From Schmidtea nova (taxonomy: Eukaryota), in contig CM097882.1 in the NCBI GenBank assembly GCA_044892505.1, positions 274,350,236-274,414,000 of the forward strand: 63,765 nt of DNA. Reading direction: 5' to 3'. A program made the position numbers and the translations under genes. Shown in pieces: positions 1-61,038 of the stretch. Position 1 is the stretch's first letter. Every line of letters starts with the position of its first letter. The notes under the pieces are model-generated. The model was not told the DNA's origin. It saw only the letters and a list, made by a program, of their open reading frames with translations, and made no database searches.

Positions 1-1531
1 TTATTAAATTAATTAATAAATAAGTAACAAAATAAGCCTTTGCTGCAAAAACAATTTTATTAAGTGAGAAAATTTTCGATTATAAAATAATCCTCGTCAA
101 TCTCTAATTCGGCAAATAACTGGTATCTTCATTCATTCTGTTGTTTCTTTTTTCGTGATTTCTCTTCCTTTTCATTGGATGTTAATCTGATTAATATAAA
201 TTTTTTAAATTTTTAGTTGTTTTTAAAATGTTTTTTGTAAAAATTTTAAAAATATAAAATAAAAACTCTAAAAATTCTTAAAAACTTTTTCTAAAATTTT
301 TTTCAGAATAAATAAATTTATCCTTTTTTTTTAAAAAATTGAAAATTTTTAAATTTTTCTATTGTCTGTATTCTACACTTTTAATTTTCCAACCCTTTAT
401 ATTTGTATTTTATTTTTTTATTTTAAAATTTAATTATATATCTTTGAAATGCCCGTAAATTCTCTGTACTATCACTTTTCTTTCTCCTTTTCTATGTCTT
501 CCTTTTACTTTTATACTTTCTTCTTTGTAGAACCATATGTTTTTTAAACAAGATAGTAAGTGGGGGATTTCACTAACTTCCTCTTTAGAGTTAATTTTTG
601 GGGGTTTGGCTCTAATGAAAATTGCTTCTTTAAGTCTGGGATATTTTTCGTCGTTTTCGTTTGTCAATATTTTCACTGATATTAATTTTTCCTTATTTTC
701 TGTCTGACATTAGTGAAGAGGTCTCTATACAGATGACTTTCAACCAAAATCAAGATGTTCTTTAATTCTCTGATGCAAAGTCCGAAGTGTGCTTCCGATG
801 TAAATTTCTTTGCATTTATTACACATGATGCTATAGACAATGTTCTTGCGAAAGCATAATTTCTTTGGTGTTTAGCAATCTTCCATCTTACATGTATTTT
901 CCTTTCTCGCGTTGTTAGCTAGAGCTTGCCTTAATGTCTTATATCTATGTGCCAAACGAATAGGAAGGCCAGTGAGATTAAGTTCTTTGATGATCATGAA
1001 ATTTATTCGGTCACTGATGAAAGGAATTCGAAGGTAGAAATATTTCTTTTCCTTTTGTAGGTCTTTCTGCCTTCTCTGGTTGAATTTTACTTTGTTAATC
1101 TGGTTAATATTGCAGGACTTCTGTAAATATCCTTTGTTGTACTGAATTGTCCTCTTCCTTTGTGCATCGATTAGCTATCCTTTGTCTCTCATTTCTAATG
1201 ACGTTTACCTTCTGCAGATGAGGAAGTGCTGATCTTTGGTGCATAAATATTTCTTTGCGGGCTGATTTTTTGTAGAACCCATATGCTGGTGTGTCTGAGT
1301 TTATTTTTATTCTCAGATCTAATAGTTCGAGGGATCCGTCTTCTTTCGGGTATTCAATATCTTAATATTCTCGGAAAGAGCCACACCTTCGAAGGACCCA
1401 GAAACTTTATTAATTTTTCTTTTGATTCATTAGCGAAAATAATTTGTTTGGTTTCAATGCCATATTGTGTCTTCAACACTTCAAATATTCACACAAGTAC
1501 AGAAAATGGAATGCTAAAGACCCTAAGAATA
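1..1531 (-). mobile_element. Penelope-like retroelement remnant (RT C-terminus + GIY-YIG endonuclease + pLTR-type end)
   Basis: Minus-strand translation gives IVYSIMCNKCKEIYIGSTLRTLHQRIKEHL (GIY-YIG, ~750-850), LKEAIFIRAKPPKINSKEE, YLRIPFISDRI and IEYPKEDGSLELLDLRI, with frameshifts and stops. Bases 1-190 recur at ~10130-10330, 14770-14824, 17595-17700 and 42545-42657. Confidence 0.8.
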
Positions 1532-1875
1532 GATTTGTTGGGTCCACCATTTGGTCAACATTTAACGTACAAAACATAATAATAGGAAAACAAATAGGAA
1601 TGAAGAAAATATTAATGTATTTAAATAAATTCCATTGAAAAAGGAATTAAAAGTAATAGAAAGATAAATGATATGGTGAAATCATAAGAAATAAAATTGA
1701 AAATGTTAAAAAGTCATAAGAAATAATATCTAAATAACATAAATTGGTTAACAATAGAATTTAATAGTTAAATTAAGAGAAAAATTAAAGAAATTTTAAG
1801 TTAATTGAAACAAAAAATAAATAGATTTTATTTTTAAAATTTATTATTATTTTGAAATAAAATTGTATTCATTGA

Positions 1876-1932
1876 TGATCAGCTTCACGCTGATTGGTCA
1901 GTGAACTGATCTGATCAGTATAAATACTGATC
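1876..1932 (+). promoter_or_regulatory. LTR promoter: CCAAT box (ATTGG) and TATA box TATAAATA at 1919-1926 inside a palindrome
   Basis: ctgattgg...GATCAGTAT-AA-ATACTGATC. The same arrangement occurs in copy B at ~17175-17250 on the minus strand. Confidence 0.6.
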
Positions 1933-2141
1933 CAGATTCAGATGATTTAAAATGTTAAAATTAACGTTAACTTTTTATGCTTTTATGCTTCAAGAAGTTT
2001 GAACTTTGAATCAACAGAGGTATGGAATTTGATTGTTTTATTATTTTTATATGTAATCTATCATGATTTTTTGATTATTTCTGTCATTGCTATTAATTAA
2101 ATAAATTTTTATGAAGAAATTTTATTATTTGAGATTTGTTT

Positions 2142-2349
2142 GAGCTTCTTCCACTGTGTAATCAGTGGAAGGAGGCAAATGTATTAAATTATTTTATTTG
2201 AAGTTTTATTCATGATTTAATTGAGCTTCTTCCACTGTGTAATCGGTGGAAGGAGGCAAATATATTTAATTGATCTTACATATTACAGTATAGATGTAGA
2301 TTATTATTCAAGGGGGCTCATGTTCATCGTGAAATCGATGAAAGGAGGC
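2142..2349 (+). repeat. Hairpin repeat array A in LTR copy A (2 full units + 1 variant)
   Basis: gagcttcTTCCACTG-TGTAAT-C(A/G)GTGGAAggaggc at 2142 and 2223; variant TTCATCG-TGAAAT-CGATGAA-aggaggc at ~2314-2349. Confidence 0.85.
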
Positions 2350-2763
2350 AGACTGTGCCGAGTAGATAACTGCTCCATACAGTTAGGCCGTCCGACTGGT
2401 ATAAAGTGCCACGAGGGGGGTAGAATTATAATAACCATATTTCTAACAATTTATCACTGGACAGTATAGCCAGTTTAATTTGGTTTTTATGTGAAAACAG
2501 TTTTATTTTTGAACGAAATTTCATCTTTGTCAATAAAGTATTATCATGTTCTTTGCGATTGTCACATCTGGGGTTTGTTCGCATAAAGCGGCTAGTATCA
2601 AATTTAGAAATAAGTGTAGAATGCACATCAGAATGCAAGAATGCAAAAAAAATCAATAACCCTAATAGAGTAGTTTAAGTGGGTCATTGATCTACCACAC
2701 AATAAAACACAATTGATCTGATGCTCAACACAAACTAAATAACATTGAAATTAATCTACTAGG

Positions 2764-2903
2764 CTGATCCCTGTATATAGGGCAGTAATTTCGTAAGATC
2801 TTCGAATTTAAATTGATATCCTGATTGCTGTAGATAGCACAGGCATGAATGAAAGGAAATAAAGTACCAAATGAATTTATCTGATCGCTGTACATAGCGA
2901 CAG
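2764..2903 (+). repeat. Hairpin repeat array B in LTR copy A (3 units, 57-60 nt period)
   Basis: CTGAT-CCC-TGTATATA-GGG-CAG (2764), CTGAT-TGC-TGTAGATA-GCA-CAG (2821), CTGAT-CGC-TGTACATA-GCG-ACAG (2881). Confidence 0.85.
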
Positions 2904-3015
2904 TGTTAAAATATAGAATGTATTTTATTTCTCTTCCTAGTTTTAAATATGAAACGAAATCTGTTAATTCGAATCAGCCGAAAATTATAATTAATGCCAC
3001 CAATTAATTCAGAAA

Positions 3016-3605
3016 ATGTCAAACAACGCAATCAATCTTCAATCCGAATTGGACAAGGCTTGGCGAATCATTCACAGCCTTGAGAAAGAAATATTGAAAA
3101 AATCAGAGAAGCTGAACACAGCAAAAACTACAACCTCTCAATTAAAGAAGAGCTGGTTTAGTCCAGACCAAATGAAGGCCCAGCTCATGAAGAACCAACG
3201 CTCTCAGCGAGCAAATGATGAGTTTAGAACCGAACTCGAAGCCACAAAAATAGAATTGAGAAAATGTTTAAAATCCGTAACAACATCTTTCATCAACAGC
3301 GAATTAAAACAGCTCATACGCCCAATCACGTACCAGCGTTGGTCAGAAGAAAAGTCTGAATGTACTAAAGGAACCAACACGGAAGAGCCATCTCAGGTTC
3401 GAGAAATACAAATTCAAATTGCACCAAAGAATGCAGAAATTTCCGAAAGCAAGAAAAAGAAGAAGAATAAGATGTGCGCAAGACAACACATTGTAAGAAG
3501 CAAGTAATGCAACAGCTGATCCAACATACGAAGGAATTTCCCGAAATCGATTTAACTACGGATTTCTCAGTGGATGATGAGGATTTCCTCAAATATTTTG
3601 AATAA
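3016..3605 (+). pseudogene. LTR-encoded ~196-aa coiled-coil/basic/acidic-tail protein, one -1 frameshift near 3490
   Basis: The 163-aa ORF continues in another frame as KKQVMQQLIQHTKEFPEIDLTTDFSVDDEDFLKYFE* (TAA 3603-3605), matching the C-terminus of copy B. Confidence 0.8.
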
Positions 3606-3696
3606 GAACTTGAAAATTTCTTGTCATTAAGTTTTGTACAAAATTTTAGTTTTATTATATTTTTGTTTTGTGATTATTTTATTATAAAGTATTTGG

Positions 3697-3702
3697 AATA
3701 AA
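3697..3702 (+). terminator. Putative LTR polyadenylation signal AATAAA
   Basis: Lies 90 nt after the ORF stop. The context aaagtatt(t)ggaa(a)taaagtattttattaaaaaattt is conserved in copy B (~15265-15290, minus strand). Confidence 0.5.
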
Positions 3703-4438
3703 GTATTTTATTAAAAAATTTAAAATTAATTAAATGCAAATTATAATTGACAATAGTGTTGATACATATGATTAATAATAAACAATAGGAACAGTAAAGC
3801 GATGATATATTGTAATCTATTGGAATAATTTGTTGATATTGTAAAGAAGGGGGCAGAGGGAAAAATTAAACAGAAAGATAATGTAATGAATAAATTAAAG
3901 TGAAAGTGAAGCGTAAGTCCTTCTATCGGCAGCAGACGAACCCGTGAACATAAATGGGGAGTAGTTTTAGCAATAGAGCTCACCTGCCCATCATTGTTCA
4001 AACACCTTGCACATTTCCAACTCGATTATTCCAGGGAAATAGTCGAGGGTGCTCGTGTGTCACGTAAGCATTTTGTTTTTGGTCTTGGATGGAGGCATCC
4101 CTAGAGCGTTTATTTATTTTCTACTTTTGTTTTAACCCATCCAAACGCCCAACAGATTATTGAAATCTCGAATCAACTAATGAAGACTTGCAATACGTTC
4201 AATGTTTATGAATCACATGCGATTCATGCTTTTATTATGCACATCATTTCAAAATGAACTTTAATGTTGTTTTTATTTACACATAAAGTATTATCTTATA
4301 GAAAAGATTTATGAATATTATTAAATGATATTAGTTTTAAAGAATTAAATCCCCACTAATATCTCCAATATCTTCAATTATATCTCCAAACATAAATGAC
4401 TTTGCCGTTCCACAACCAGATGCTTTTGCTTTTCCAAA

Positions 4439-4561
4439 AATATAGTATATAAACTTACCTGTCTCAAACGTGACGCTACTTACATAGGAGAAACACATAG
4501 AACTAATCGCACACGACTTAATGAACACACTAAAAATAAAACCAGTAATTATTACGAACAC
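4439..4561 (+). pseudogene. Penelope GIY-YIG endonuclease fragment
   Basis: NIVYKLTCLKRDATYIGETHRTNRTRLNEH. Confidence 0.7.
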
Positions 4562-7094
4562 TGGAAGAACTTAATTTTAATCTTATTTTTAATATGCAAT
4601 ATTATTTTCAAAAATTAAATTATTATTTTAATTATATAACATAATGAAGTAAATTAAGCTTTTTTTTCAAAAAAATTGATAAGAAGGCCTTTTAACATTT
4701 CAGTCTAGGGCCTCCTTAAGGGTAAATCCCTGACTGTCGCTCGCGCTGATCAATTATATCCCTGCAAAACGTTATTGTGAACTGTCAATTTCAAATATCG
4801 AGTAAAAAAGAATATGGAGCCTAAAGGGTATCTGTTTGAAATCTAAAAGTAATTATTTTATTATTACTTAATTTTTGTATGGGGTTACCTAATATTTTTT
4901 TATATGGGGGAAGATATTTAGATTTAATGTAGTAAAAGACTTTCAAAGAAAATATTTACTAGTGAAAATAAGAAGTTCAAAACAAATAATTCAAAGAAAT
5001 ATTTTTTAAGCTGCCAAATTTCATAAGTCGCCACAAGGTGTATGGGGACTACACCTCTCATTCGAAGGAAAGCAGAAGGAATTGCCGTATACCGCTATAT
5101 ATTCTCCATTACGGATATTACATTATTATTTGGAAATATATGGAAACATTTAAGACACTAATTTGTGGAAAAAAATAATTTTATTTAAGAAGATCAAAAA
5201 AATTAGAAATGAAAAAGAAATAAAAGCAGTTCAATCACCATTTGACTTGCTATAACTCGGAGTTCTTACATTTCCTCTTCGTGTTACTTTTACGTAATTA
5301 TTTCGTTTTATTAGAATTTTTGGGAATTAATCTTAATTTTGTTTCTGGTTGTCTAATTTTATAGAATATAAAAATCTATGAATCATTAATTTCTAAAAAA
5401 ATTTGTAATTAAAAATCATTTGAATAATGTTCCATTATAATTTGTACGGCACAGAAATTGTTTCCGCCTTTACGGGGTCTCCTCGGGAAAATGATCAGAC
5501 AAACATTTAATTGATGAACTTCATTAAATATCATACTACGATTTTTTGGTGTCCATATATTTTTAAAAAGAAACTTTGATCCATCGACAGTGAGGGTAAG
5601 TTAGGCACCTTAATACCTTCAATCTGGAAACTTGAATTTCCGACTGAATTAATTGCCCATACGATTTTTATATTTCTGCAATTGAAAATTAAAATAGACA
5701 ATTCCTATTTCAATTAAACCTATTAAAATATCCTCTTTACCGAACTACCAACTTTGATTGGAAATGAATAAAAGAAATGAGCGGACTTCAAATAATGACA
5801 TTGTTTCGTGTTTTGTCATTTATCAAACAATAACATAAGAAAAATACATAAATTGAAAAGCTTTTCTTGGAAATCTATCATTTTATTTGATTGATTAATT
5901 TTGTTTCAATTTCCATTGTCGCGCTGAATTGAATGGTTCAGTCAATTTCAATAAAACCTTTTATACTTTATTTGCTCCTCCTTCTTTCAACAATTTATGG
6001 NNNNNNNNNNNNNNNNNNNNNNNNNNNNNNNNNNNNNNNNNNNNNNNNNNNNNNNNNNNNNNNNNNNNNNNNNNNNNNNNNNNNNNNNNNNNNNNNNNNN
6101 NNNNNNNNNNNNNNNNNNNNNNNNNNNNNNNNNNNNNNNNNNNNNNNNNNNNNNNNNNNNNNNNNNNNNNNNNNNNNGTAATGATTTAATAATAGAAAAA
6201 CGCCAACTCAGTCAATTCAACATAAACGCGATATATTTCGATTGTATAACAATCTTCGTCAAGCAACAATCAGGATAATCAATAATAAAACAGAAAATAT
6301 GCTAAATTTAAACAAATTAATCAATAATAATCATCTCCATACTATATCAGAATTTTAATTTAAAAATTTAATTTATTTATTTTTATTTTATCACAAAAAA
6401 ATTTTTAAATTTAATTAAAAAACAAACATTTTACATAGAACAACATACGTATTATTTTTAAAAAATAAAATTTAATTTAATAAAATTTTAACATTCAACA
6501 TAAAATTTACAAATTTAAAAAAAAATTAAAAATTTGTGAGAGCCGTGGTTCAACTCCAAAGTTGGAATTTTAAAATATGATCATTTACTTGATAAACGAC
6601 GAAGTTGTGCGAAGTTTAGCGCAACGGTACAGTGGTTCAGAGGTTAAGAGGTTCAGTGGCAGTGGAAGTACATGTGATAATGGGTTAGTATGTGTGAAGT
6701 GATGATGTAAATGAGTAACCACGTGTATAAGTTAGTACGCGTGTCACAGCATAGCAACTAAAGTTCAATATGTACAGGTCAACTTTGGTCAAAGGTCAAT
6801 AACGATACAACAGCGTCCAAAGGTCAAGTATGATGTAACCAGGGTTAATATTATGTTATTGGGGTCATATATGATGTTATTGTGACCAATTGTTATGTAA
6901 CAATGTTAAATGTAAAGTGAGCGGGGTCTAATATGATGTATTTGTGTAAAGTGTTATGTAATGAGGTCAATCATTTTGTGATATTATTTAATTTATTTTG
7001 TAATAGATGTCAAGTGCCAAATATTTCGTAATCCTTGGGGGTATTGTATCTGACCGGGACACATCCTACTCATATTCCAAAAAATTCTTTCCAC

Positions 7095-7380
7095 ATCTTG
7101 CAAAGTTAGCAGTATGTTCACTAATAAATGTCCAACACCAGTTGGTCTGTGTTCTGAGGTCGTGTATCAATTTTCATATAATGTATGTATTATCACATAC
7201 ATTGGAGAGACTACCCGTCATTTTTGCACTCGAGTTCTTGAGCATTGTTGACTGAATGGATTGGCTAATATTGATGATCATTTTAGGAAATGTATTAGTA
7301 AAAAATAGGTATCTCTGCTCAAGGCATGCTGAAGTTTCTGGTTCTACGAATATTTTGAATGTGTTTAAGTAACTAGGTGT
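7095..7380 (+). pseudogene. Penelope GIY-YIG endonuclease fragment
   Basis: KVSSMFTNKCPTPVGLCSEVVYQFSYNVCIITYIGETTRHFCTRVLEH*, in a different frame from the listed 7007 ORF. Confidence 0.75.
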
Positions 7381-7904
7381 TGCATGTTGTGAATTTTGGA
7401 ATGTTGTGTTTTTGGTATAAGTCGGTTTGTTATAGAGAATATTTTATAAATTTTGTGTTTTAAAAGAAAATATTTTTGTTTTCAATTTCGATAAAAAATT
7501 CAAATTTTCATGTTTTTTTAAAATATACTTTTATAAAAAAAATTATTTGAAAGTTTTGTGTGAAGAATTTATTTTTAAAAATTGAATTTTGATACAATTT
7601 GAAGACGATTATTATTGATTAATTTTTTTGAATATTTCGTTTTATCTATTTATTATTGATAANNNNNNNNNNNNNNNNNNNNNNNNNNNNNNNNNNNNNN
7701 NNNNNNNNNNNNNNNNNNNNNNNNNNNNNNNNNNNNNNNNNNNNNNNNNNNNNNNNNNNNNNNNNNNNNNNNNNNNNNNNNNNNNNNNNNNNNNNNNNNN
7801 NNNNNNNNNNNNNNNNNNNNNNNNNNNNNNNNNNNNNNNNNNNNNNNNNNNNNNNNNNNNNNNNNNNTTTGATCTTTTTTTATTATTATTATCAATAATT
7901 CTCA

Positions 7905-8053
7905 TAATGACTATAGATCAAAATTTTTTTTTATAAACAATAACACAATATTTTGGCACAGCCTTTATCAAGTGTGTATTTCACACTTGATAAAGGCTGT
8001 GCCAAAATATTGTGTTATTGTTTATAAAAAAAAATTTTGATCTATAGTCATTA
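7905..8053. repeat. Perfect 72-bp inverted repeat with 5-nt loop; member of a dispersed palindromic family
   Basis: Arms 7905-7976 and 7982-8053, loop TATTT. Related arms occur at ~18880, 38110-38220, 43070-43190 and 45420-45490. Confidence 0.85.
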
Positions 8054-10129
8054 NNNNNNNNNNNNNNNNNNNNNNNNNNNNNNNNNNNNNNNNNNNNNNN
8101 NNNNNNNNNNNNNNNNNNNNNNNNNNNNNNNNNNNNNNNNNNNNNNNNNNNNNNNNNNNNNNNNNNNNNNNNNNNNNNNNNNNNNNNNNNNNNNNNNNNN
8201 NNNNNNNNNNNNNNNNNNNNNNNNNNNNNNNNNNNNNNNNNNNNNNNNNNNNNNNNNNNNNNNNNNNNNNNNNNNNNNNNNNTATAGCAAGATGTTATTT
8301 TATGGCAACCAAATAACTATTGATGTAACTGATTAGTTACCCGTTGCAAGCAATGTTGGTGCTATAACTAACGGGTGAAAATACTCGCATCAATTGAGCA
8401 CTGCTACAAGAAATGTATTTGCTCGAGTACTTTTTCTGGATTCACGAGCTATCGATAGAAGATCTAAGCTCAATTTTGATGTATGGTCCCTTTCTATTTC
8501 TATTTCGTTCTAATAATTTTTAAATCAGGTTTTAGGTTTTATTTAGGTCCTTTTTTGACCATGTCATTGTTTTTATCTAAAGAAATAAGGTTTACTAAAT
8601 CATGACATCATGGTTTTGGGATATAGGATTTTTAATGAAAATTGATGCGAGAATAATAAGAAAATACAGAGTTTTATGCTAAGATTAATAAACTAAATTA
8701 TTTAGAAAGATGTATTTATTTTTCAAGAAAATTAGTAGAAATTTTAGTTAAGATCAAGTCAGATGTTTTTGCTGACCAGGTTTATTATGCAGCATGCTAC
8801 GCATGAGTAAGTTCAATTCTTAAGGTAATAATTTATAGATTTTATAAGTTGTAATTTTCGATGTTTCAATATTATCAGAATTTCTCAGATTTCCGATCAT
8901 CTCATTGCATCACAAGTATTTCGCATCGATTTATTTTTAGATTTTAACTTCTTCAATTAATATTCACTCGATTTAGATGTATATTTTTATGATCGTCAGA
9001 AATTGTCTTAAATTTTGTTGGAAAAATTATAGGTATTTATTTTATTTGGGGGTCTATTTGACAGCATGGGGTCGGACAGTTGAAGAGAATCCATTCTGCA
9101 CACGTTATCCCACATTGACTACGTGCACTGCAAAAAGCTGGGAATGTCACAGCGAGATTACAGCTCGGAAGGTCTGGAAGATAATAAAATTTAAAAAAAC
9201 AAAAAGATTTGATCATTTTATGTATGCAACATTTTAGACAAATATCGAGAATAGATCGAATTTTGAATCAATGAAGTAATGATATAACATAGACAGCCAG
9301 GGTATGGGACAGTGCCAAATAAAAATAAATTATGATAGACAAAACATCAAACTGGCATACCTAGCATGCTCAGTATGCTACCGTCCCTCCAATAATCTGA
9401 ACAGCAATGCTCACCGATATAGTTTTTCCAAATATTTGATTTCTCAGAATGCTCACTTCTCTCAAACAAGAGTGTCTTCAAAAAATGTTCATGTAAAAAG
9501 TCTTCTTTTTTCAAAAAAAAGTGTTTTTCAAAGTGCTCAACTTTTAGAACAGAGTGTTTAATGACTGAAAATGGCATAACTATATAGATACCATTTTCAG
9601 ACCATTTAATTTAAGTGATGCAGTAAAACAAGTTTTTTATCGTTATTTTTACTTAATTTAATTTATTTTAAAAGTTTTATTTTATTTTTGCTAAAATGAA
9701 TTTATATTTATAAATAAAATTTTATTCTATACTTTAACAAATTTTATTTTTATTAAATTTTTATATTTTACTTAAATTTCAACTACTTAAATTTATTTTT
9801 ACAATTTACTTTTGCATTTTTTACATTTATACTAATAAAATTGAGATAATTATTTATAAAAATTATGAATTTTTTGTTTATTTATTTATTTTATTAGATT
9901 TTCTTGTTAATTTGTTTTGTTTGTGTTTTTTCATGTTTACTTCTTGTATTTGTTTATTTTGCACTTTACTTTTGTTTTAATTAATTTTTACATATGCACT
10001 GTTTATTATTTTTGCTTATCTTGATGTTTTCCTTTAATATTTGAGTATACTTCTTGCATTGTCACTACATGTTATATTTGCATTCACTCACAAATCAATG
10101 AACTTCAGTTTTTACCCAACAATTATAAT

Positions 10130-10870
10130 AAAATGGTGATTTGTTTGTAGCAGCAATAATTAAATATTAAATAAATAATAAATAACAAAATAAGCCTTTT
10201 CTGCAAAATTTCATTTATAAAGTAATACTTGTCAATCTCTAATACAGAATATAATTGGAATCTTCATCGTGTACTGCTATTTCTTTCTCTTGAATTATCT
10301 CTTTTTTTATTGGATGTAAATTTGATTAAAATAAATTTTAACACTTTTCTTTAAAATATAAATCTATAGGGATACCACATCGAGGCTAAAGTAGTAATTG
10401 AATTTGCATGGGTTGTTTTATTTGTTTTATTCAAGTTTCACATGAGGCAGTCACTGCTTTGAATATGGTGTGGTACTTTGTTTAAAAAAGAAGACAAATA
10501 ATCTTGTTTGTTGGACCTTTTTTTATTCGATACAATTGGTCTAATCTTGATCATGGGGCCTTCTTTAGGAGTTTTAATTAAACAGTTAAATTTTGGAAGG
10601 TTGGAAATTTGTGTTATGAAGATTTTGGCAGATTTTTCCCTGATACCTTTATTTTGCCAATTTTTTTGAATGCTTTGTTAATCTTTCCTTTAATGATGTT
10701 TGCTAAAAAGCATTTCATCTCTTGATTTGTATTTGTGTCGTTGAGATGTTTTTAGGCTTCTTCACAATAAAGGAATTTCTAAATTTTAGGTAAAATAATT
10801 TCAAAATTTATATTAATCAGATTTACATCTTATGAAAAAAAGAGATAATTCAAAAGAATGAAACAGCAAT
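10130..10870 (-). mobile_element. Penelope-like RT N-terminal fragment plus pLTR-type end
   Basis: Minus strand gives IRPIVSNKKGPTNK, DYLSSFLNKVPHHIQSS and YFSLDVVSL*. Bases 10130-10330 are homologous to 1-190. Confidence 0.65.
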
Positions 10871-11589
10871 ACACGATGAAGATTCCAGCAATATTCTAAA
10901 TTAGAGATTGATAAGAATTATTTCATAATCCATAATTTTCACTTAATAAATAATTTAATTATTTCATTTATTAAAATAAATAATTTAAATATTAAAATAA
11001 ATAAACGAATTAAATTATAAATATTCCTATTTAATGAATAGAATACATAAGCGTAAAACAAAAATAGTATAAATAGAAGCTGAAAAATCATAAAATTAAC
11101 TTTAATTTTGCTAACGGTCATTGATTTGAAGTTTTCTCGCTTTCCAGCCCACATCGGTATTGGAATTGATCACTCTAGTGGAATGGAATAAGTATGTGTT
11201 ATTGTTTGAATAACTAATAATTCAGAAGTTTTTATGTAATAAATATTTTGAATCTGGTTTTTGGTTAATGCTCTGTATCATTTGATTGTCCTGATTAAAC
11301 TGATCTAGGAAGAGCTCTGACGGCCCTCCGGTTATGAGTTCCTGATCGGGTGGAGAATCTTGAACCGAACAATCTGGTCGAGTCCTCAGATCATTGTTTT
11401 ATTAAATTACACAGATCGATTGGGGAAAAGGTAATAAGGAATGTAATAGAGAATTGAACCAGGATGTATAAGCGGAATGCTATTTAAGATATTTTTGGGA
11501 ATTATTAGGTGCAGATGTTAGATAGAAGAAGCAGAAGCTATAAAAAGTCACGAGTTGATAAAATTTAAATACCTTTGATAGTAAACAGT

Positions 11590-11768
11590 TTCTATCGGCA
11601 ACAGAAACCCGAAAAATCGAATACAATGAGGAGTAGTTTGGCAACTAAGCTCATCTGCTCATCAAAATTTCGCACCACTGTGTACATTACTAACAGATTA
11701 CTAAGGAGTAACTATAGGTATACGAGTAAGGGCGATTTAACAATTTCATAATGGTATATGGGTTAATG
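11590..11768 (+). mobile_element. Diverged fragment of the 3' part of a related long LTR, interrupted by the hAT (resumes 14407-14445)
   Basis: ctatcggcaacagaaacccg...gagtagtttggcaactaagctcatctgctcatc aligns with copy A 3922-3995. After the hAT, ttttaacaacccatgcaca resembles the LTR end. Confidence 0.5.
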
Positions 11769-14398
<2,630 letters not shown>

Positions 14399-14674
14399 GG
14401 TTAATGTAATCCTTAGTAACAACAATTTTTAACAACCCATGCACAAACAATACTGTTGTTTACAAATATGGAAATATTTATAAATTATTCTTAAAAAATA
14501 TTTTTTTTAAAAATCGGGTATTTTAAAATTAATTTATTTAAATTAAAACATAATTTTATTGTTTTAAAAGTTTTTAATATTTTATGTAATTTTATATAAA
14601 TTATCTTTAACAATTATGATAAATTTTTTTTTAAATTGATTATTTTGATTTATATTAGAATCGCTAACTGAAAG

Positions 14675-14715
14675 GCACCTGATGATGAGAAATCGTTTCT
14701 TGAAATATATTGTGC
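14675..14715 (+). ncRNA. Minimal type I hammerhead ribozyme (Penelope type)
   Basis: GCAC-CUGAUGA-U-GAGAAA(UCG)UUUCUU-GAAA-UAUA-UU-GUGC: stem I GCAC/GUGC, both core motifs and a palindromic UAUA replacing stem III. It lies next to the Penelope-associated repeat. Confidence 0.65.
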
Positions 14716-15375
14716 AGAACAAAATTTTGGATTGGCGTTTGTTTTTAATATTATTATTATTTTAACAATAATAAATTAATTAATAAATAAGTAACAAAAT
14801 AAGCCTTTGCTGCAAAAACAATTTTGCTGGAGTATTGGATGGGTTAAAACAAAAATAGAAAATAAACTAAACGCTCTAGGGATTCCTCCGTCCAAGACCT
14901 AACATAAAATGCTTACATATCACACAAGCACCCTCGATCATTTCCCTGTAATAATCGAGTTGGAAATGTGCAAGGTGTTTGAACAATGATGGGCAGGTGA
15001 GCTCTATTGCTAAAACTACTCCCCATTTATGTTCACGGGTTCGTCTTGCTGCCGATATAAGGACTTACGCTTTACCTTTACTTTAATCTATCCGCATTCC
15101 TTATCTTTTAATTCAATTTTTCTTTCAGCCCCCTTCTTTACAATATCAACAGATGATCTTCAATCAATTACAATATGTTATCTCTTTAATGCTCCTATTG
15201 TTTATTATATTTATGTCAATCCTATTGTTAATTATAATGTACATTTAATTTAATTAAATTTTTTAATAAAATACTTTATTTCCAATACTTTATCATGAAA
15301 TAAATACGAAAACAAAAATTATAATCAAACTAAATTTTTATGCACAATTTAATAATACTAAAAATTCTCAAGTCA

Positions 15376-15982
15376 TCATTCAAAATATTTGATAATATCT
15401 TCATCAGTTACTACGAAATCCATTGTCAAATCAATCTCGGGCACTTCCTTTGAGTGTTGGATTAATTGTTGGAGTACTTGCTTTTTCCAGCGACGCTGAC
15501 GCGCGCCCATCTTACTCTTCTTCTTCTTTTTGACCTCTGCAATTGCTACGCTTTTTGGTGTGGTTGATGCTGTCGTTGCTTGAACCCGAGGAGTGTTCAT
15601 CCGTATTCGTTCCTTTTGAACAGCCTGATTTCTCTTCAGCCCAATGCTGATAGGTAATTGGACGGATGAGTTGTTTCAGCTCTTGATTGAGATAAGAAGC
15701 CGTTACCGATTTCAAACACTTCTTCAATTCCATTTTAGTGGCATCGAGTTCCATCTTTAGTTCATCGTTTGCTCGCTGAGAGCGTTGATTTTTGATGATT
15801 TGCGCCTTCATTTGCTCTGGACTAAACCAGCTCTTCTTTAAATTTGATATTGTGAGGTCAGCTTCTTTTATCCTTTCAGATTTTCTCAACATCTCTTTCT
15901 CCAGGCTGCGGATAATGCGCCACGCCTTGTCCAATTCTGTTTGAGGAGTTACTGAGTTGATTGACATTTTTCTAGAATTCAA
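15376..15982 (-). pseudogene. LTR-encoded protein, copy B, one +1 frameshift near 15595
   Basis: ORFs 15512..15982 and 15376..15600 join into one protein homologous to copy A (about 70% identical over the first ~124 aa by hand alignment). Confidence 0.8.
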
Positions 15983-16094
15983 AATGATTTATCAATATGA
16001 ACTTGGGCTTTTGGCTTGAATAACTCTCATAATTTCTACGATTGTTAATTTCTAATTCAGGAAAAGAAATAATATACATATTATAATTTCAACA

Positions 16095-16230
16095 CTGTCG
16101 CTATGTACAGCGATCAGATACATTCACTTGATAATACATTTCATTTATTCACGCCTGTGCTATGTACAGCAATCAGGATAAGGAATTATTAAAATTAACT
16201 AAGATCTACTGCCCTATGTACAGGGTTCAG
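16095..16230 (-). repeat. Hairpin array B in LTR copy B (3 units)
   Basis: Reverse complements read CTGAA-CCC-TGTACATA-GGG-CAG, CTGAT-TGC-TGTACATA-GCA-CAG and CTGAT-CGC-TGTACATA-GCG-ACAG. Confidence 0.85.
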
Positions 16231-16708
16231 GATAAGCAATTATTTTAATTCTCTGTGTTGAATATCTGATCCTTTAGCCTATTGATGGTATTCTACTTGC
16301 GTGGTAGATCACTGAACCACGCTATTAAAGTTATCGATTTTCTTGTTATTTCTCTTGTTCAAAGGTGTATTTTATGCTTAGTTCTAGACTTTATATCTGC
16401 CGCTTTATGCCCACAAACCCCAGATGTGACAATTGAAAAATAGGATACTATTTCGCTAACCAAATGTGAAATCAGATCAATAATAATCACGTCTATTATT
16501 ATCTCAAAATAAATTAAAACTCAAACTTAACTTCAAATTCATAATAATCAAATCTATTATCTTCTCAAAAATCAAACTTCAACTGGTTATACTATCCAGT
16601 GATAAAAACGTTAGAATTCATGGTTAATACAATCCTACCCTCCTCGTGGCGCTTTACACCAGTCGGACGGCCTAACTGTACGGAGCAGTCTTCTACTCGG
16701 CACACTAT

Positions 16709-17000
16709 GCCTCCTTTTCACCGATTTCACGATGTTCAGGAGCCCCTTGAATAATATGTATATATCTACAGTAACTACTCTACATAAATAATATATATTC
16801 GCCTCCGTCCACCGATTACACAGTGGAAGAAGCTCGACCAAAAAATGCTCATAAATAATATAACTCATGCCTAATTATTCACTGAATATAATAATGTTGC
16901 CTCCTTCCACCGATTACACGGTGGAAGAAGCTCAATAAAATATCAATACACGTTTAAATATCTTCGTCTCCTTCCACCGATTACACAGTGGAAGAAGCTT
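16709..17000 (-). repeat. Hairpin array A in LTR copy B (3 full units + 1 variant)
   Basis: gcctccttccaccgattacac(a/g)gtggaagaagctc-type units at 16801, 16899 and 16966; variant at 16709-16745. Confidence 0.85.
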
Positions 17001-19249
17001 AAATAATTCTAAATTCAAAAAATAAATCATATATAAAATTTCATAAATTTTAATTATCTTTACACAATGGTGACAGAAATCATGATTAACATAACAATAA
17101 AAAGAAAATCAAATATACCTTCAAATTGCTGCACAAAATTTTCAAGATTTTAACAGTAAAATTTTATCGTAATTATCTGAATCTGGATCAGTATTTATAC
17201 TGACCAGATCAAATTTTGAACCAATCAGCTTGAAGCTGATCATCAGACCAATACAAATAATAAATTTTATTAAAAAATAAAATCGATTTATTTTGTTTTA
17301 AATAGCTAACTTTTCTTGTTTTGATTTCTAGAATTTTATTAATTCTTTTTTCTTTATTACTTATTTATTTCACTTTCTTTTTATTTAAATATAATTACAT
17401 ATCATTCTTCTTAACACTTTTGACAGTTTCAATTCTATTTCTTCTAATTCTTTTAATATTCTTAATATCTTTTAATACTTTTAATTCATTTTTTCTGAAA
17501 TTTCTCGTAATTATATTAATATTAATTTATTCCTATTTATTTCTTAATGTTATTATTTTTACATCTAACTGTTGACCAAATGGTGGATCCAACAATTTTC
17601 TCACTTAATAAAATTGTTTTTGCAGCAAAGGCTTATTTTGTTACTTATTTATTAATTTATTTAATACTTAATGCTGCTACCAAGGAATCACCATTTTATA
17701 CTATAACAATAATAAAAATAATAATAATTATTATTAAATAATTATTAAATATCAAAATAAGCCTTTCCTGGAAAATTTTCACATAATAAAAAAATTTGCA
17801 GAAAAGACTTATTTTGTTAATTATTATTTATTTAATATTTAATTAATGCTGCTACCAAGAAATCATCATTTTATATTATTATTATTTTTATTAATATTAT
17901 TATTAAAATTATGAATAAAATTTTCTCATAAAATATTAAAATTTATGACCAATGTAAAATGCATTGTGGGTATACACTCCAACACATATTGTAGAAATTT
18001 GTTTTTCATTATACATGGATATTAAAATTATACGTTTATTAAAATTACAAATAAACAGATAATTTTGAGTGGTTTTAATTTAAATATCTGATTTGCAGCG
18101 GAAGCATATACTATCTGAAAAATATTTAGAACCATTAATTTAGTTATTTAAAAATAGTTTATAAATAAAATCAATTCTTTTATGAATTTCGGATGACTGT
18201 TTGATTAAAATAAAGTTTTGTTAATTGTTAAACATTAGACTATATAAAATAGCAAACACACATACATACTCTAACACAACACGCACCCCAGCTGTCCCAA
18301 AACAATTTCAAAGGAGACTCGACTGGGCTCGACAGTTTCCTTATATATACAGTCTTTAACAATTATGTTGAGATTCCTAGAATCTAAATTTGATGATTCG
18401 TATATAAAAAACACAAATCCTGCTTACTAAGTTTTATTTATCTATTACAATATTTTACAAGCTGATAAAAATTACCTTTTCATAAAAATGAAATTTTTAA
18501 CAATATATATGTATATATACACTCGTGTTTATAAGTGTTATGTAAGTGAATGCAGTGTTCTGACCTAGGATGTGTAAACTTTGCATGCTCTAATTTATTT
18601 TACAAATGTCGTCTACCGAAATTGTAGCTCTTCTTAGATTATAAGATTTAGGGAGTTATTTAACTGAAAAATCAGTCAGTTTATATACTAATTTTTAAAG
18701 CACTTAATCTGCCAATAATGATTGTTATTTTTCTACTTCAGTTGATTGAAATTGTTTTCAAAACAGAATTGTTTTTAACCTTGGAATTATTTCATTTTGC
18801 TGACTTTGTAGGTCATAAATATAATTTATTTAAACAAACAGTAATTTATTTATTTTAGTTTATTTAAACAATCAGTATTAATACACACTTGATAAAGGCT
18901 GCACCTAAATATTGTGTACTTATTTAAAGAAATTTTGATCAATAGTCAAATCAATGGGAATAATTGATATTAATATTTTATTTTTATTATTATTTTTAGT
19001 AATATTGCTATAATTTATTTTTTTTGAATTAAAACATAAATCAAAATATAAACCATTTTACAAATAGTTAAAAAAATTAATTTACATAAAATATTTTCAA
19101 AACGAAATATTCTTTTAAAATCACATAAAATTTTATCATTAATTGTGTCCACCGCCATAAGATAAAAAAATGTCAATAAATGTTCACAAGATCACAAATT
19201 GTAAATTGATAAATTATCATAATTATATTGTCAAAAATTAAATTATCAT

Positions 19250-19700
19250 TCGATCCATTGTATGATCTTGATTGCCGTCCACATATACATTATTCTATAT
19301 TTTAATTCCTCTTCTGTAGTCACCTTTAATTTTGAATGTGTCGAATATTCTTGCTGCATCTAACAATTATATGCTTGGGTTGGGTCAATAAGTCACTGGA
19401 TTCAATTCCGGATGAAATCGAGTTTCTTACATGGTACTAAGTTTAAAAAGCTTCTGGCACTGGAAATCGCATCGAATACTACAACAAGATTTTATTTTAA
19501 TCAGTAAGTTAACCAAATCCAAAAACCAAAGGAAGATTTATTTATGATCATTTGGTTCAAATACTTGTAACACCTTTAGATTGGAAATGTGGAATGAATA
19601 GAGTCAGACCAGTTTAATAACTATGGAGATATACCAAATTACCATCAGAATGAACTGATTTGTCAAATTCTCATGGTAAATGTTCATGATCACATTGAAT
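19250..19700 (-). pseudogene. Possible Tc1/IS630-type DDE transposase remnant
   Basis: Minus-strand FHPELNPV and EEELKYRIMYMW resemble the DDE_3 C-terminal motif, but the sequence is highly degenerate. Confidence 0.3.
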
Positions 19701-19973
19701 CTGAAATAATCAAGTATTATAATTAATTTTTTCATTAAATTTATATAAATATCCTTATAATAGCTGTACTATCTCGGCAATAATTATAGGGACAGTTAGT
19801 TAAAAATGCAAAGAAAAAAAGGCAATGAATTATTTAATGAAATAACAAATACTGATTAAAATAGTGAAAACAGTGGGATAAATTAATATTTGGTAGGAAA
19901 ACAATACAATAATTTCCATATTGATTTTTGTAAGACTCTAAATTAAAAATAATTTTTTATTTGGTACAAAATA

Positions 19974-21134
19974 AGTAGTAGGAAGTGAGCCCGCCAGATA
20001 TAGGTCAAGACCCCCCCCCTAGAAAATTTTTTTTATGTAGGTCAAATTTATGTAGGTCAATTTAAGGTCAAATTTTTTGCTTAAGGACACTTTAAGGACA
20101 CTTTAAGGACACTTTAAGGTCAAATTTTTTGCTTAAGGTCACTTTGAGGACACTTTAAGGTCAAAAAAGTAGGTCAAGGTCGTTTCAGGGACACTTTAAG
20201 GTGAGTTTAAGGTCAAATTTATGGTTTAAGGACACTTTAAGGACAAAAAAGTAGGTCAAGGTCGTTTTAAGGACACTATAAGGTCAAAAAGAATGCCAAT
20301 TTAAGGTCACGATAAGGACAAATTAAGTAGGTCAAATATTTTTAAGGTGAATTTAAGGTTAAAATAAGTAGGTCAAATATAATTTTCAAATTTTTTCTAT
20401 GTCAGAAAAAAGTAGGTCAAATATTTTTAAGTTGCTATGACAACGAATAAGTAGGTCAACTTTATTTTTTCAAAATTTGGTAGTTGCTATGACAACGAAT
20501 TAAGTAGGTCAATAATAATTTTGAAAATTTTTCTATGTCAGAATTAAGTAGGTCAAATATAAAAACTTAAAAATTTTTTTATGTCAGAAAAAAGTAGGTC
20601 AACTTTATTTTTTCAAATATTTTTCTATGTCAAAAATAAGTAGGTCAACTTTATTTTTTCAAAAATTTTTCTATGTCAGAAAAAAGTAGGTCACGAAAAT
20701 TTTTCTATGTCAGAAAAAAGTAGGTCTCAAAAATATTTCTATGTCAGAAATAAGTAGGTCAACTTTATTTTTATAAAAATTTTCCTGTGTCAGAATTAAG
20801 TAGGTCAAATATAAAATTATTCAAAGTTATAATATATTTAAAATATTTTCTATGTCGGAATTAAGTAGGTCAATTTAAGGTCAATGTGAGGACGAAATAA
20901 GTAGGTCAATTTAAGGTCAAGGTGAGGACAAATTAAGTAGGTCAATAATAATAATTTCTAAAATTTTTTCTATGTAAAAATATAAGTAGGTTAATAATAA
21001 ATTTCGAAATTTTTCAAAGTCAGAATTAAGGGTACATTCAGGGTACTATAAGGTCAACAAAGTAGGTAAAATATATTTTTTCTGTCAGAAAAAAGTAGGT
21101 CACGAACAATTTTTCTATGTCAGAAATAAGTAGG
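19974..21134 (+). repeat. Left terminal inverted repeat, rich in AAGTAGGTCA and TTAAGG(T/A)CA units
   Basis: Reverse complement of ~36990-38108; roughly 20 GTAGGTCA-type motifs by eye. Confidence 0.93.
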
Positions 21135-21674
21135 NNNNNNNNNNNNNNNNNNNNNNNNNNNNNNNNNNNNNNNNNNNNNNNNNNNNNNNNNNNNNNNNNN
21201 NNNNNNNNNNNNNNNNNNNNNNNNNNNNNNNNNNNNNNNNNNNNNNNNNNNNNNNNNNNNNNNNNNNNNNNNNNNNNNNNNNNNNNNNNNNNNNNNNNNN
21301 NNNNNNNNNNNNNNNNNNNNNNNNNNNNNNNNNNNNNNNNNNNNNNNNNNNNNNNNNNNNNNNNNNNNNNNNNNNNNNNNNNNNNNNNNNNNNNNNNNNN
21401 NNNNNNNNNNNNNNNNNNNNNNNNNNNNNNNNNNNNNNNNNNNNNNNNNNNNNNNNNNNNNNNNNNNNNNNNNNNNNNNNNNNNNNNNNNNNNNNNNNNN
21501 NNNNNNNNNNNNNNNNNNNNNNNNNNNNNNNNNNNNNNNNNNNNNNNNNNNNNNNNNNNNNNNNNNNNNNNNNNNNNNNNNNNNNNNNNNNNNNNNATCT
21601 TATAAAAAATGGAACAATCAAAAACTAAAATTTAAATTACTAACATTTATTAAATAACATTTATAAAATAACAT

Positions 21675-22142
21675 TTATGCATATCGTGCACTGTCAATTC
21701 TCCAAATTGGAGTTATAACATCTTTTGTATCTACTTTATAACCCTGAATAATTATATTAATGAACCAGTGTTCTTGATCCTTGTATTCGATTGATTGGAA
21801 TGCATCATGAAAACGAGTTTTTCTGTTGTTGATGTATATTGTTTCTTTGCAACTTAAATTTTTATTGATTTTCAATAAAATTTTATTTAGTGCAACAACA
21901 TCTTCTTTAGATATATTTGCAGCTAAACTGTCATACAATGATTTTGTTAATTTAACCGGATACAATAATCTAAAAGGTATTTCTTCTACCAAGAAATAAA
22001 TTTTATAGTCATAATACATTTGGACTGGTTTGACTTCTGTCTTGATTTTTCTTTTAATTCCTTCTTTCTTGTTTTCTTCCCCATTGATTGGGTTGTTAAA
22101 AATATTATCATAAGTAGGAAAATTTTCTTTGTAAGATTGCAT
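21675..22142 (-). CDS. Polinton accessory protein, 155 aa; possibly a ssDNA-binding OB-fold
   Basis: Intact ORF with a TATAAATA about 45 nt upstream. The C-terminal WFINIIIQGYKVDTKDVITPIWRIDSARY pattern is reminiscent of viral SSBs (inference). Confidence 0.6.
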   Translation of the reverse strand: MQSYKENFPTYDNIFNNPINGEENKKEGIKRKIKTEVKPVQMYYDYKIYFLVEEIPFRLLYPVKLTKSLYDSLAANISKEDVVALNKILLKINKNLSCKETIYINNRKTRFHDAFQSIEYKDQEHWFINIIIQGYKVDTKDVITPIWRIDSARYA

Positions 22143-22688
22143 TTTAATAATTGTGACATTATCTAAAAAATAGCTTTGTATTTATAGTCATGAGTTTATG
22201 TCTTTGTCCAATGAAAATGAAGCATTCACATTGTGTGTTATGGATGTGTGTATGTTATGCGTGTGTGTATGTCTTTGTTACATGTTTTTTGTCGAATGTG
22301 TGTATGTCTTTGTTACATGTTTTTGTCACATGTGTATCTTTGTCACATGTGTATCTTTGTCACATGTATTAAATAATTGATCATGTGTGCGTATTTTTAT
22401 TTAGTTAAATGTTTTATTTAATGTCTTTATTTAAAATGTTTATGTATTTAGTTAATATTTATATTTCTTTATAAGTCAAATTGTTTTAATAATGAAAACC
22501 TCTATATTAAGAAAAACATTACTATTTAAAAAAAATAAACTAAAACCTGAACTTTAATATAAATTTATAAACAAACTAAAATACTAATACTAATAAATTT
22601 ATTAAATGAAAACTAAAAAAGGTAATTATAACACACAAAAACATAAATAATAACAATAAAAATAACATAAAACATAAAATATATACAA

Positions 22689-23210
22689 TTATTTCTGTGG
22701 TGATGATTGATTGCAATCTATCATTTCACGATTGCATTCTTCGTAATCTGGAAGATCATCGGTAATCTTGCGATGACATTCCTCACAATTAGGTGATTCT
22801 GGCGAATCGCCGCATTGTGACAATTTATCACATTGAATCGATTCGTCTGTAGGACCCGAACAATCAGCGGATCCATTGTAATCAGGAGTACTATTGGGCC
22901 ATATTTTAGGTTCTTCTTCTTCTTTTGAGGATTCTAATTCGAATCTTTTTAGTTCCGTCCGCAAAATCCATATACAGAACCTCTCAATTCGGTCAGTACA
23001 ATGACCGCATTGATAGGCACACAGGATGTGCTCGGCCATGAAAGGGATTTCGACATTTAGATTTGCGAGGTGGTCCAGCAATATTTGATTAATATCTATT
23101 CCCGTAATACACTGGATCTTATACGGGAGTAGTTCCGGTGCTGTGTAAGTCAGCTGCGTCATCAAATTGGGGAATATTTCTTCCAGTTTTCTGTATAATA
23201 CAGCCATCAT
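22689..23210 (-). CDS. Polinton orphan protein, 173 aa, Cys-containing with acidic C-terminal half
   Basis: Intact ORF (CAYQCGHC; CEECH). A possible upstream ATG micro-exon with a GTAAAT...AG intron lies at ~23211-23263. Two CCAAT boxes at ~23372 and ~23426. Confidence 0.6.
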   Translation of the reverse strand: MMAVLYRKLEEIFPNLMTQLTYTAPELLPYKIQCITGIDINQILLDHLANLNVEIPFMAEHILCAYQCGHCTDRIERFCIWILRTELKRFELESSKEEEEPKIWPNSTPDYNGSADCSGPTDESIQCDKLSQCGDSPESPNCEECHRKITDDLPDYEECNREMIDCNQSSPQK

Positions 23211-23457
23211 CTTTTCTAAAAAAGTAAATTATAAAAAATGTAAACAAGTAATTTTTTAATTTACCATTTTTGAGTTTTGTCGATGTGAGACTCATTTTAG
23301 ATATAAATTATCACAAAATGTTCATGGTACGATAGTAACACACACAACATATATGAAATAATACACACATAACCAATCAGATTCGAGTGCACGTAATATG
23401 TCTTTATCTGATAAATACATACACAGCCAATCAGAATCGTGCATTACTATTGTAGGT

Positions 23458-23943
23458 TTATTGCAAACATGAGTCACATGATAATAAAAAATCTAAAAAG
23501 TCTTTATCTTCAATAATTGATTTTATATCGATAATAATACTATCAACTATATTATAATAATCCCTATTTTTTAACCCTAATATCACTACTTTACCGCTTG
23601 CAAATATATTAACACACATAGGATTATATTTTATATATCTCAAAGCTGGAAATATTTCTGGCTCGTAAACACAATCCATTAATTTAGCTAAAACATTTAA
23701 ATTACAACTAAATCCCAAGTCTACCGTTACAGTAATTGATTGTATTTTTAAATCATAAATCTTTATTTTTTCATCACTAATAAATTCCTTGCATCCCATT
23801 ATTCTAAATCTTCCGGTCTTAAAAAATATTATCGGGTACTTACCACTTCTATCAATAATTTGCTGCGGTTTCCCCTTTGGGAAATTCAAGTGAGATACAT
23901 CAGTTTTACCCTTATAATTTATGTTGCTAATCATTACTTTCAT
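23458..23943 (-). CDS. TATA-binding protein (TBP)-like protein, 161 aa
   Basis: Two TBP repeats: ISNINY...IIFFKTGRFRIMGCK and KIQSITVTVDLGFSCNLNVLA...YEPEIFPALRY...NIFASGKVVILGLK, compared with canonical KIQN...YEPELFPGLIY...LIFVSGKVVLTGAK. Confidence 0.88.
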   Translation of the reverse strand: MKVMISNINYKGKTDVSHLNFPKGKPQQIIDRSGKYPIIFFKTGRFRIMGCKEFISDEKIKIYDLKIQSITVTVDLGFSCNLNVLAKLMDCVYEPEIFPALRYIKYNPMCVNIFASGKVVILGLKNRDYYNIVDSIIIDIKSIIEDKDFLDFLLSCDSCLQ

Positions 23944-24030
23944 GAATATTTTTTAAATATGAGAACTGTAATGAAAACTATTATTTAAAACAAATATAAA
24001 CAATAATACTAAAATAATAAAATAAAAAAT

Positions 24031-24654
24031 ATGGAATTAAGAAATGATGCAGTGTTTCAAATTGTTGGACCGAGCGGGAGTGGGAAAACTTTATTTGTTT
24101 GTAAATTATTACAATCAAAATTATTTAAATTAAAGTTTAATAAAATTTATTGGCATAGGGGTGCGGATGATGAACATGGAATGACTCAAGATCAATTTTG
24201 TAAAATAAAAATGACTATAATAAAAGGTTTCGATAAAAATTGGTCATCTAGATTACGACAAGGTGATGTGATTATTATTGATGATTTGTACCAAGAAGCA
24301 AATAAAGAAAAGGATTTTAATAATTTATTTACAAAAATCGCTAGACACAAGGGTGTTACAGTTATTTTTATTACTCAGAATTTATTTCATCAGGGTGGTA
24401 GTCATCGAACTCGTAATTTGAATGTTCAATATCTTGTTGTTTTTAAAAATCCTAGAGATGCAACAGTTATTGATTTTCTTGCAAGACAAGCATACCCTTC
24501 TAATCGTAATTTCTTGATTGATGCATTCCAAGATGCCACAAAAGCCCCTCATGGATATCTTTTTCTTGATTTCACGCAACAATGTAGTGATGATTTACGA
24601 GTTAGAACAGATATTTTCAACAAGGAAGGAGCAATGGTTTATAAACAAAGTTAA
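24031..24654 (+). CDS. A32/FtsK-like genome packaging ATPase
   Basis: Walker A GPSGSGKT, Walker B VIIIDD, ARHKG and ITQNLF motifs. Confidence 0.95.
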   Translation: MELRNDAVFQIVGPSGSGKTLFVCKLLQSKLFKLKFNKIYWHRGADDEHGMTQDQFCKIKMTIIKGFDKNWSSRLRQGDVIIIDDLYQEANKEKDFNNLFTKIARHKGVTVIFITQNLFHQGGSHRTRNLNVQYLVVFKNPRDATVIDFLARQAYPSNRNFLIDAFQDATKAPHGYLFLDFTQQCSDDLRVRTDIFNKEGAMVYKQS

Positions 24655-24674
24655 CTGGATGTATATTATCAATC

Positions 24675-25215: not shown

Positions 25216-25270
25216 ACAATGGGACAATCGTTGCCTAATCTTAATTTAAACTTTAAATCTTCTTGTTGTA

Positions 25271-60870: not shown

Positions 60871-60897
60871 TATCCCGCTGTAATCGAAATCCCACGT

Positions 60898-61038
60898 TGT
60901 GATTTAATATATATTATTATGTTTAGTGTTTGTTAGTTAATGTTAAGTATAATAGGAGATGTTGTAGTGCCCGAGAGAGTCTTACAAAAACAGTGTGTAG
61001 ACACTCGGGGTGCTTGCTGTGTAATGCACAAATTTACA
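60898..61038 (-). mobile_element. Short (~140 bp) solo LTR related to the LTR at 62559
   Basis: Reverse complement shares acacagca.gcaccccgagtgtc...gactctctcggg..ctacaa with 62559-62660. No clean TSD; a further degenerate copy lies at ~51630-51750. Confidence 0.5.

Follow-up and report, generated by a model that had tools for sequence, protein, structure and literature searches.

The hairpin array found twice in the window (i.e. the whole stretch of 63,765 nucleotides of Schmidtea nova DNA that was analysed) is real, conserved and absent from Rfam. A reading as strongly conserved RNA signals, multimerised within an LTR, is supported, if modestly, by the sequence, and the array very probably acts at the RNA level, on the strand of an open reading frame (ORF) carried by the same LTR; its setting hints at a control circuit of the HIV Rev type. 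Of the original prediction of a multimerised protein-binding RNA element, a multimerised, ORF-sense RNA element of variable copy number inside an LTR is retained, whereas protein binding is putative.

As had been predicted, a stem of about 12 bp occurs twice in one copy of the LTR (copy A) and three times in the other (copy B), and these are the five exact matches to the stem-loop pattern in the whole window (starts at 2148 and 2229 on the + strand and at 16808, 16906 and 16973 on the - strand), the chance expectation being 0 in 100 shuffles even when three mismatches are allowed. On folding, each of the five canonical units forms a 12-bp stem with the loop UGUAAU (stems at 2145-2174 and 2226-2255 (+) in A; three within 16808-16994 (-) in B), with energies of -18.5 to -22.8 kcal/mol (z -3.5 to -6.0) on the sense strand and of -8.2 to -18.7 (z -1.0 to -5.3) on the opposite one, the sense strand giving the more stable fold in all five. 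Most units also have a part that had been missed, namely a 3-bp lower stem past a purine-rich 2x1 internal loop (AG/G). Copy A thus carries unit A1 (2140..2178 (+); 3-bp lower stem, AG/G internal loop, 12-bp stem, loop UGUAAU) and unit A2 (2221..2259 (+)), and copy B carries B1 (16962..17002 (-)), B2 (16895..16935 (-), with C-G as the variable pair and the first UGU absent) and B3 (16797..16837 (-), with C-G in the lower stem and a previously unmentioned U/C mismatch within the stem). One variant unit follows each array, both with the loop UGAAAU: A3v (2312..2353 (+)) has the 7-bp stem with two compensatory changes that had been described, and B4v (16705..16747 (-)) contains two A/A appositions that had not been.

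Sites within an array are spaced by 67-98 nt, and the spacers are unrelated, as stated in the original prediction: 20 of the 21 spacer pairs are without significant likeness, and the exceptional pair, the last spacer of A against that of B (p 0.002), is orthologous. A covariance model was built from the seven units (five canonical and two variant), the matches of which are there by construction, and its scan of the window returned nothing else above 16 bits. Comparison of positions 1-20000 with Rfam, a check suggested at the outset, yielded 18 matches at E up to 10, none of them over any unit, and so no known family. The hairpin pattern had no match in viral contigs or in prokaryote genomes, and two matches in metagenomes were put down to chance, each being a lone hairpin with unrelated flanks in GC-rich DNA of bacterial appearance. 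In the databases searched, no convincing relative of the array or of the LTR ORF was found beyond the window.

Between the two LTRs the units are 92-95% identical and the spacers 53-61% (p about 1e-5 for unit identity against the spacer level), which argues for selection on the sequence and not on pairing alone. Because the unit sequence is nearly invariant, covariation is scarce: 11 of the 15 pairs never vary among the five canonical units, and their covariation was matched by 183 of 500 shuffles. With the variants added, there are three pairs in which both partners change, and a score as high came up in 2 of 500 shuffles, a lenient control in that related sequences can pass it without any structure; pair-keeping changes are then seen at three stem positions. 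The stem pair said to alternate between U-A, U-G and C-G does so (U-G in three canonical units, C-G in one and U-A in one); the same series recurs at the middle pair of the lower stem, and the variant adds a C-G/U-G/U-A series at another stem pair. The series had been regarded as diagnostic of the strand; RNA on the ORF strand is supported modestly, but such a series alone is weak evidence for it because it amounts to just the two single transitions from U-G. In a strand-neutral search for stems, G-T and A-C appositions stood at 8:2 in A and 15:2 in B, against 105:106 elsewhere in the window, and after correction for base composition the G-T excess had p 0.13 in A and p 0.02 in B, the units being non-independent.

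The unequal copy number had been ascribed to independent amplification in each LTR lineage, which the units contradict: B2 differs from A2 at 1 of 39 bases and from B1 and B3 at four each, the B units differing among themselves at four bases. Since A2 and B2 are near-identical and the last spacer is orthologous, a more fitting history is an old duplication under strong selection, after which one unit was gained or lost (or conversion occurred).

Self-comparison of the window shows that 1536-4154 (+) and 17594-14825 (-) are one and the same element, present twice. No primer site or gag-pol is attached to either of them, for which reason each, at 2.6-2.8 kb, is taken to be a solo LTR; the window contains no full-length member. 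The PBS, gag and RT from which a lineage might be assigned are absent, the Osvaldo lineage (Metaviridae), for example, being recognized by its RT/RNase H/integrase phylogeny and a tRNA-Lys PBS. Copy A (1536..4154 (+), 2619 bp) runs from TGTTGGG to CCCAACA, where homology to B ends, has inverted ends that are perfect over 7 bp and is flanked by the 4-bp target duplication GATT (1532-1535, 4155-4158). Copy B (14825..17594 (-), 2770 bp, TGTTGGA...TCCAGCA) is delimited by its termini and inverted flanks; its inverted ends have one mismatch, and its 4-bp target duplication, AAAT, is less certain in an A-rich, palindromic flank. Short inverted ends of the TGTTRNR...YNYAACA type, with TG...CA, are found in LTRs (PMC3601003). 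The dS of the ORF (1.8) indicates that the two LTRs belong to old, separate families. Among known elements, Osvaldo-lineage gypsy LTRs (about 1-2.1 kb, mostly with 4-bp target duplications; PMC3286476) are alike in length class and duplication, but A and B are longer still (2.6-2.8 kb) and coding. The planarian Burro and plant Ogre giant elements are alike in very long LTRs (1.9-6.5 kb in Ogre) and in carrying accessory ORFs; these extra ORFs, however, are placed in the internal region, and hairpin arrays are not described in the available part of that source (PMC6431247).

The surroundings are AT-rich, transposon-rich and eukaryotic, and each copy adjoins fragments of a single abundant Penelope-like family, found at 1-1400, 10128-10950, 14769-14825, 17594-17915 and 42545-42657 (RT end, GIY-YIG by eye). 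A and B as a Penelope terminal repeat was considered and rejected, their own TG...CA ends and duplications arguing for LTRs; a continuous Penelope frame across copy A was looked for and not demonstrated. Copy B sits between two inverted Penelope-like pieces, an arrangement that may reflect a fold-back or an error of assembly, and the database protein P0122, which matches the Penelope-like RT end, joins a WD40 fragment to it and is probably a mis-called gene. Between 36 and 48% of the words of the window were found in four public runs of one study; no RNA run was listed as containing them, which has no bearing on expression.

In the direction of the ORF, one strand of each LTR presents in order an AT-rich start, CCAAT and TATA boxes, a donor-like site, the array, two conserved blocks, a second array, an acceptor-like YAG, the ORF, AATAAA signals and a terminal block that is 94% identical. 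The block taken to be a promoter (1886..1945 (+), 85% identical in B, where the TATA is at 17199) comprises a reverse CCAAT box and TATAAATA (1919-1926), both of which also lie within palindromes. The splice-donor-like AG/GTAT (2018..2025 (+); 17118 in B), a putative donor, is the sole AGGT between TATA and array in each copy and is aligned within a spacer of 53% identity. Just after the array a conserved structured block (2352..2440 (+), 89% identical) folds into a pair of stem-loops that contain U-G pairs and tandem G-A appositions and in which A and B are set apart by one double change, A-U to G-C; a further conserved block (2551..2595 (+), 84% identical) is without significant fold. The equally putative acceptor-like CAG (3010..3012 (+)) lies 3 nt before the ATG (in B, TAG, 4 nt before), and 24 ATGs in A and 14 in B are found between the TATA and the ORF. 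Past the ORF an AT-rich stretch (3697..3782 (+)) has AATAAA signals at 3697 and 3777, so that TATA (1919) and AATAAA follow each other on one strand, AATAAA being common in AT-rich DNA.

The most conserved block (3909..4144 (+), 94%) contains stem-loops, including one with a GCAA tetraloop, the stem of which is compensated in a third relative at 11590-11745. This third relative (11590-11745 and 14400-14450 (+)) shares the 3' block alone (about 65-70%) and is split by a hAT transposon (602-aa ORF at 11982-13790; 8-bp duplication by eye). A small LTR at 62509-62699 was tried as a relative giving the orientation and dismissed, the similarity to the 3' block having p 0.24-0.99; the lowest p of the 15 tests, 0.047, was against another part.

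The second array (2764..2903 (+); 16095-16230 (-) in B) has three units per copy, each made of a 3-bp stem, a bulge of 1-2 nt and a 4-bp stem, a topology that recalls the TAR and phage boxB hairpins. All the changes in the upper, 4-bp stem are compensatory (0 of 500 shuffles as high), and the loops of all six units carry the exact Pumilio element UGUANAUA, varying at N alone, which makes binding of a host protein to LTR RNA plausible. It is here, and not in the hairpin array in question, that the exact match to the Pumilio element lies.

The ORF of about 200 codons (3016..3605 (+); 15967-15376 (-) in B) would encode a two-helix coiled coil of about 110 residues, a linker, a K/R-rich motif and an acidic hydrophobic tail. 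Both copies are frameshifted in the last third, at different places (near 3490 in A, near 15590 in B). Over codons 1-126 the comparison of A with B gives dN/dS 0.09 at dS 1.8, with 62 of the 95 differences at third positions, and the low ratio points to strong purifying selection, i.e. to a protein that mattered. The single-chain structural model (mean pLDDT 81, pTM 0.36) predicts helices at residues 8-47 and 50-117. The K/R-rich 18-mer has 3 Arg and 8 Lys in B, 4 and 6 in a distant copy and 2 and 7 in A, where it is broken; an NES-like pattern is matched once in the tail of B and in none of the A frames. Relatives of the ORF were absent among 22 candidates and from metagenome and viral contigs, Pfam reported weak coiled-coil families alone, a fold search gave 0 matches at E 0.001, and an Atlas search brought up coiled-coil look-alikes from bacteria, of low recognition, and no match to the tail. 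The one match among 1.84 billion sequences, a 4261-aa coiled-coil repeat protein (E 5e-5), was taken as non-specific. The distant copy is a frameshifted relative at 60390-60890 (+), 44% identical over 64 aa and with a K/R-rich motif of its own; TATA-like and donor-like motifs are seen by eye upstream of it, and the covariance-model scan detected no hairpin units near this locus, which is interrupted by other insertions.

In retroviruses the export factor is encoded by a spliced mRNA, and Rev, Rex and Rec multimerise on intron-retaining RNA at a structured element that it carries (PMC10746203); a nematode example is Cer1, in which the accessory protein CERV is made from a spliced mRNA and is needed for export of the genomic RNA (PMC10309623). 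By analogy, the array may be a multimerised RNA element that acts in cis within transcripts of the long LTR of a gypsy-type retrotransposon, each unit offering the same docking site (12-bp pyrimidine/purine stem, 2x1 purine loop and GNRA-like loop) and the spacers merely keeping these sites apart. The LTR promoter would give rise to a spliced mRNA, joined from the donor-like site upstream of the array to the acceptor-like site at the ATG and therefore devoid of the arrays, from which the protein would be made; the protein could then multimerise on the arrays of intron-retaining RNA and bring about export, stability or read-through. With 14-24 upstream ATGs the ORF would be hard to reach without splicing, and a spliced mRNA dropping both arrays appears to be the simplest route, given also that the donor-like and acceptor-like sites are kept in both copies. 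It is in this sense that we infer transcription, splicing, the strand of the genomic RNA, the ligand and the outcome; the genomic transcript may start so as to have a very long R region, or the gene may be wholly in U3.

That the ligand of the array is the LTR's own basic coiled-coil protein, following a Rev/Rex-like logic, is the leading proposal, put forward tentatively and as something short of probable. Counted against it are a basic motif that is Lys-rich (3-4 Arg of 18) and weaker than the classic arginine-rich motif, an NES-like pattern in the tail of B only, a distant ORF relative with no hairpins nearby, and an ORF with no homologue. The likeness to Rev/RRE, Rex/RxRE and Rec/RcRE lies in a small protein with a basic motif and a putative multimerisation surface, apparently made from a spliced mRNA, and in an RNA structure that has purine-rich internal loops and would offer several docking sites (PMC10746203). 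Here, however, gene, promoter, putative intron and RNA elements are all within one LTR, the RNA consists of identical, separate hairpins in a row as opposed to a single branched structure, the motif is Lys-rich, the NES is not conserved, sequence similarity is nil and the function is predicted. With CERV of Cer1 the element shares an invertebrate, gypsy-type setting and an accessory protein, but its ORF has about 200 codons, is inside the LTR and lacks a Cys loop.

A further step, that the LTR is a self-contained circuit with a promoter, an intron bearing two arrays and a protein that binds one of them (Rev/Rex- or Tat-like) while the other offers Pumilio sites to the host, is rather doubtful; if true, each solo LTR would be a portable gene for a trans-acting regulator. 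Control of genome export or transcription by a protein and an RNA element is a hallmark of complex retroviruses, and an LTR with a gene and repeated 39-nt docking hairpins would be, if confirmed, an independent and unusually testable instance. In the literature searched, outside which most subscription journals lay, one worked case of such control came up among invertebrate LTR retrotransposons (CERV of Cer1, with no RNA element named in the parts of the sources available), and no description of hairpin arrays together with a conserved gene inside an LTR.

Most of the evidence for the array as RNA, i.e. the sense-strand fold, the conservation and the covariation, applies equally if the array is bound by a host protein, as a CTE-like export element, a signal for a dsRNA-binding transport adaptor or a repressor site, the ORF being otherwise employed. 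A host ligand would account for a sequence that hardly varies between two old LTR families, CTE-type elements need no viral adaptor and function as multiple copies (PMC10746203), and the Pumilio sites of the adjoining array render host binding plausible; against this, Rfam has no match, the specific PUF/FBF version fails and the retention of a basic coiled-coil ORF in the LTR is left unexplained, so that the proposal is judged unlikely. Even though the array lies 120-330 nt past the donor-like site, where a packaging or dimerisation signal for Gag/nucleocapsid, made of tetraloop hairpins just past the splice donor and present in unspliced RNA only, might be sought, such a role is improbable: the array is within the LTR, 1.8 kb from its end, its loop lacks self-complementarity, neither a complement nor an 11-nt receptor was singled out in both copies at an evidently homologous place, and a search for kissing partners of the loop gave many chance complements, none of which stood out. 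Repeated tetraloop hairpins and GGAG-rich strands are nonetheless typical of retroviral packaging signals.

The near-invariant stem would suit a dimer-bound DNA palindrome equally well, with inverted half-sites 10 bp apart recognized by a dimeric transcription factor and the array acting as an enhancer 200-400 bp past the TATA; the invariant stems, variable copy number and free spacers are as in enhancer arrays, the CCAAT and TATA block is close by, and the factor might possibly be the basic coiled-coil protein that the LTR itself encodes, which would then be a transactivator and the acidic hydrophobic tail of which could be an activation domain. What speaks against DNA is that single-side changes keep G-U on one strand, with no A-C in the canonical 12-bp stems, that the variant units alter both arms yet keep pairing, and that the flanking blocks behave as RNA (the double change, the compensated GCAA hairpin and the second array), which makes a DNA element quite unlikely. 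The two roles named in the original prediction, FBF-type PUF sites and small-RNA precursors, are very unlikely even when taken jointly. Most units were said to contain CUGUGUAAU, which is true of four of the five canonical units but of only four of seven when the variants are counted; in these, UGUGUAAU fits the first eight positions of UGURNNAUA, the 9-nt FBF element of single-stranded RNA (PMC6351103). No unit, however, matches all nine positions, the ninth base being C, the UGU is half buried, its first U and G being paired (unpaired probability 0.00-0.01 on folding), the UGU is absent from B2 and both variants (three of seven units), and the 8-nt pattern is common by chance, with a frequency elsewhere in the window of about one per kb (61 on +, 52 on -); nor is FBF known from the host. 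A UGU-containing motif is what the array has in common with the FBF and Pumilio elements, and FBF binding, given a failed 9-nt FBE whose first two bases are paired, is highly improbable. The change from UGUAAU to UGAAAU is more readily explained by a U-U-closed GNRA tetraloop, a motif that we take to fit the loop core U-G(U/A)AA-U and in which the change hits exactly the free position, N. Precursors of miRNA-like small RNAs would be expected to be stable and conserved in their arms, as these hairpins are, but a duplex of about 22 nt needs a hairpin of roughly 60-70 nt, and 12+3 bp in 39 nt are far too short; furthermore, the loop is conserved as well as the arms, and Rfam (1-20000) places no miRNA family match at the positions of the units, so that this role is scarcely credible.

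Other elements were observed along the window. Minimal-hammerhead-like motifs are seen by eye or pattern at 14675-14720 (+), a motif that Rfam (range 1-20000) did not report, and at about 44480-44515 (-). A perfect 72-bp inverted repeat between two gaps (7905-8053), with sub-threshold miRNA matches, is likely a MITE end or an assembly artefact. Another LTR family with a conserved hairpin is represented at 62509-63765 (+), 60928-61095 (-), 51590-51740 (+) and 18274-18348; behind its small LTR at 62509-62699 lie a primer-binding-like site, at 62700, and, from 62888, a gag-like ORF (by eye; no Pfam match). Finally, a Maverick/Polinton at 19974-38108 has inverted ends of about 1 kb, an A32 ATPase, a double-jelly-roll capsid-like ORF, a chromodomain ORF and a TBP-like ORF at 23458-23943 (Pfam E 1e-15).
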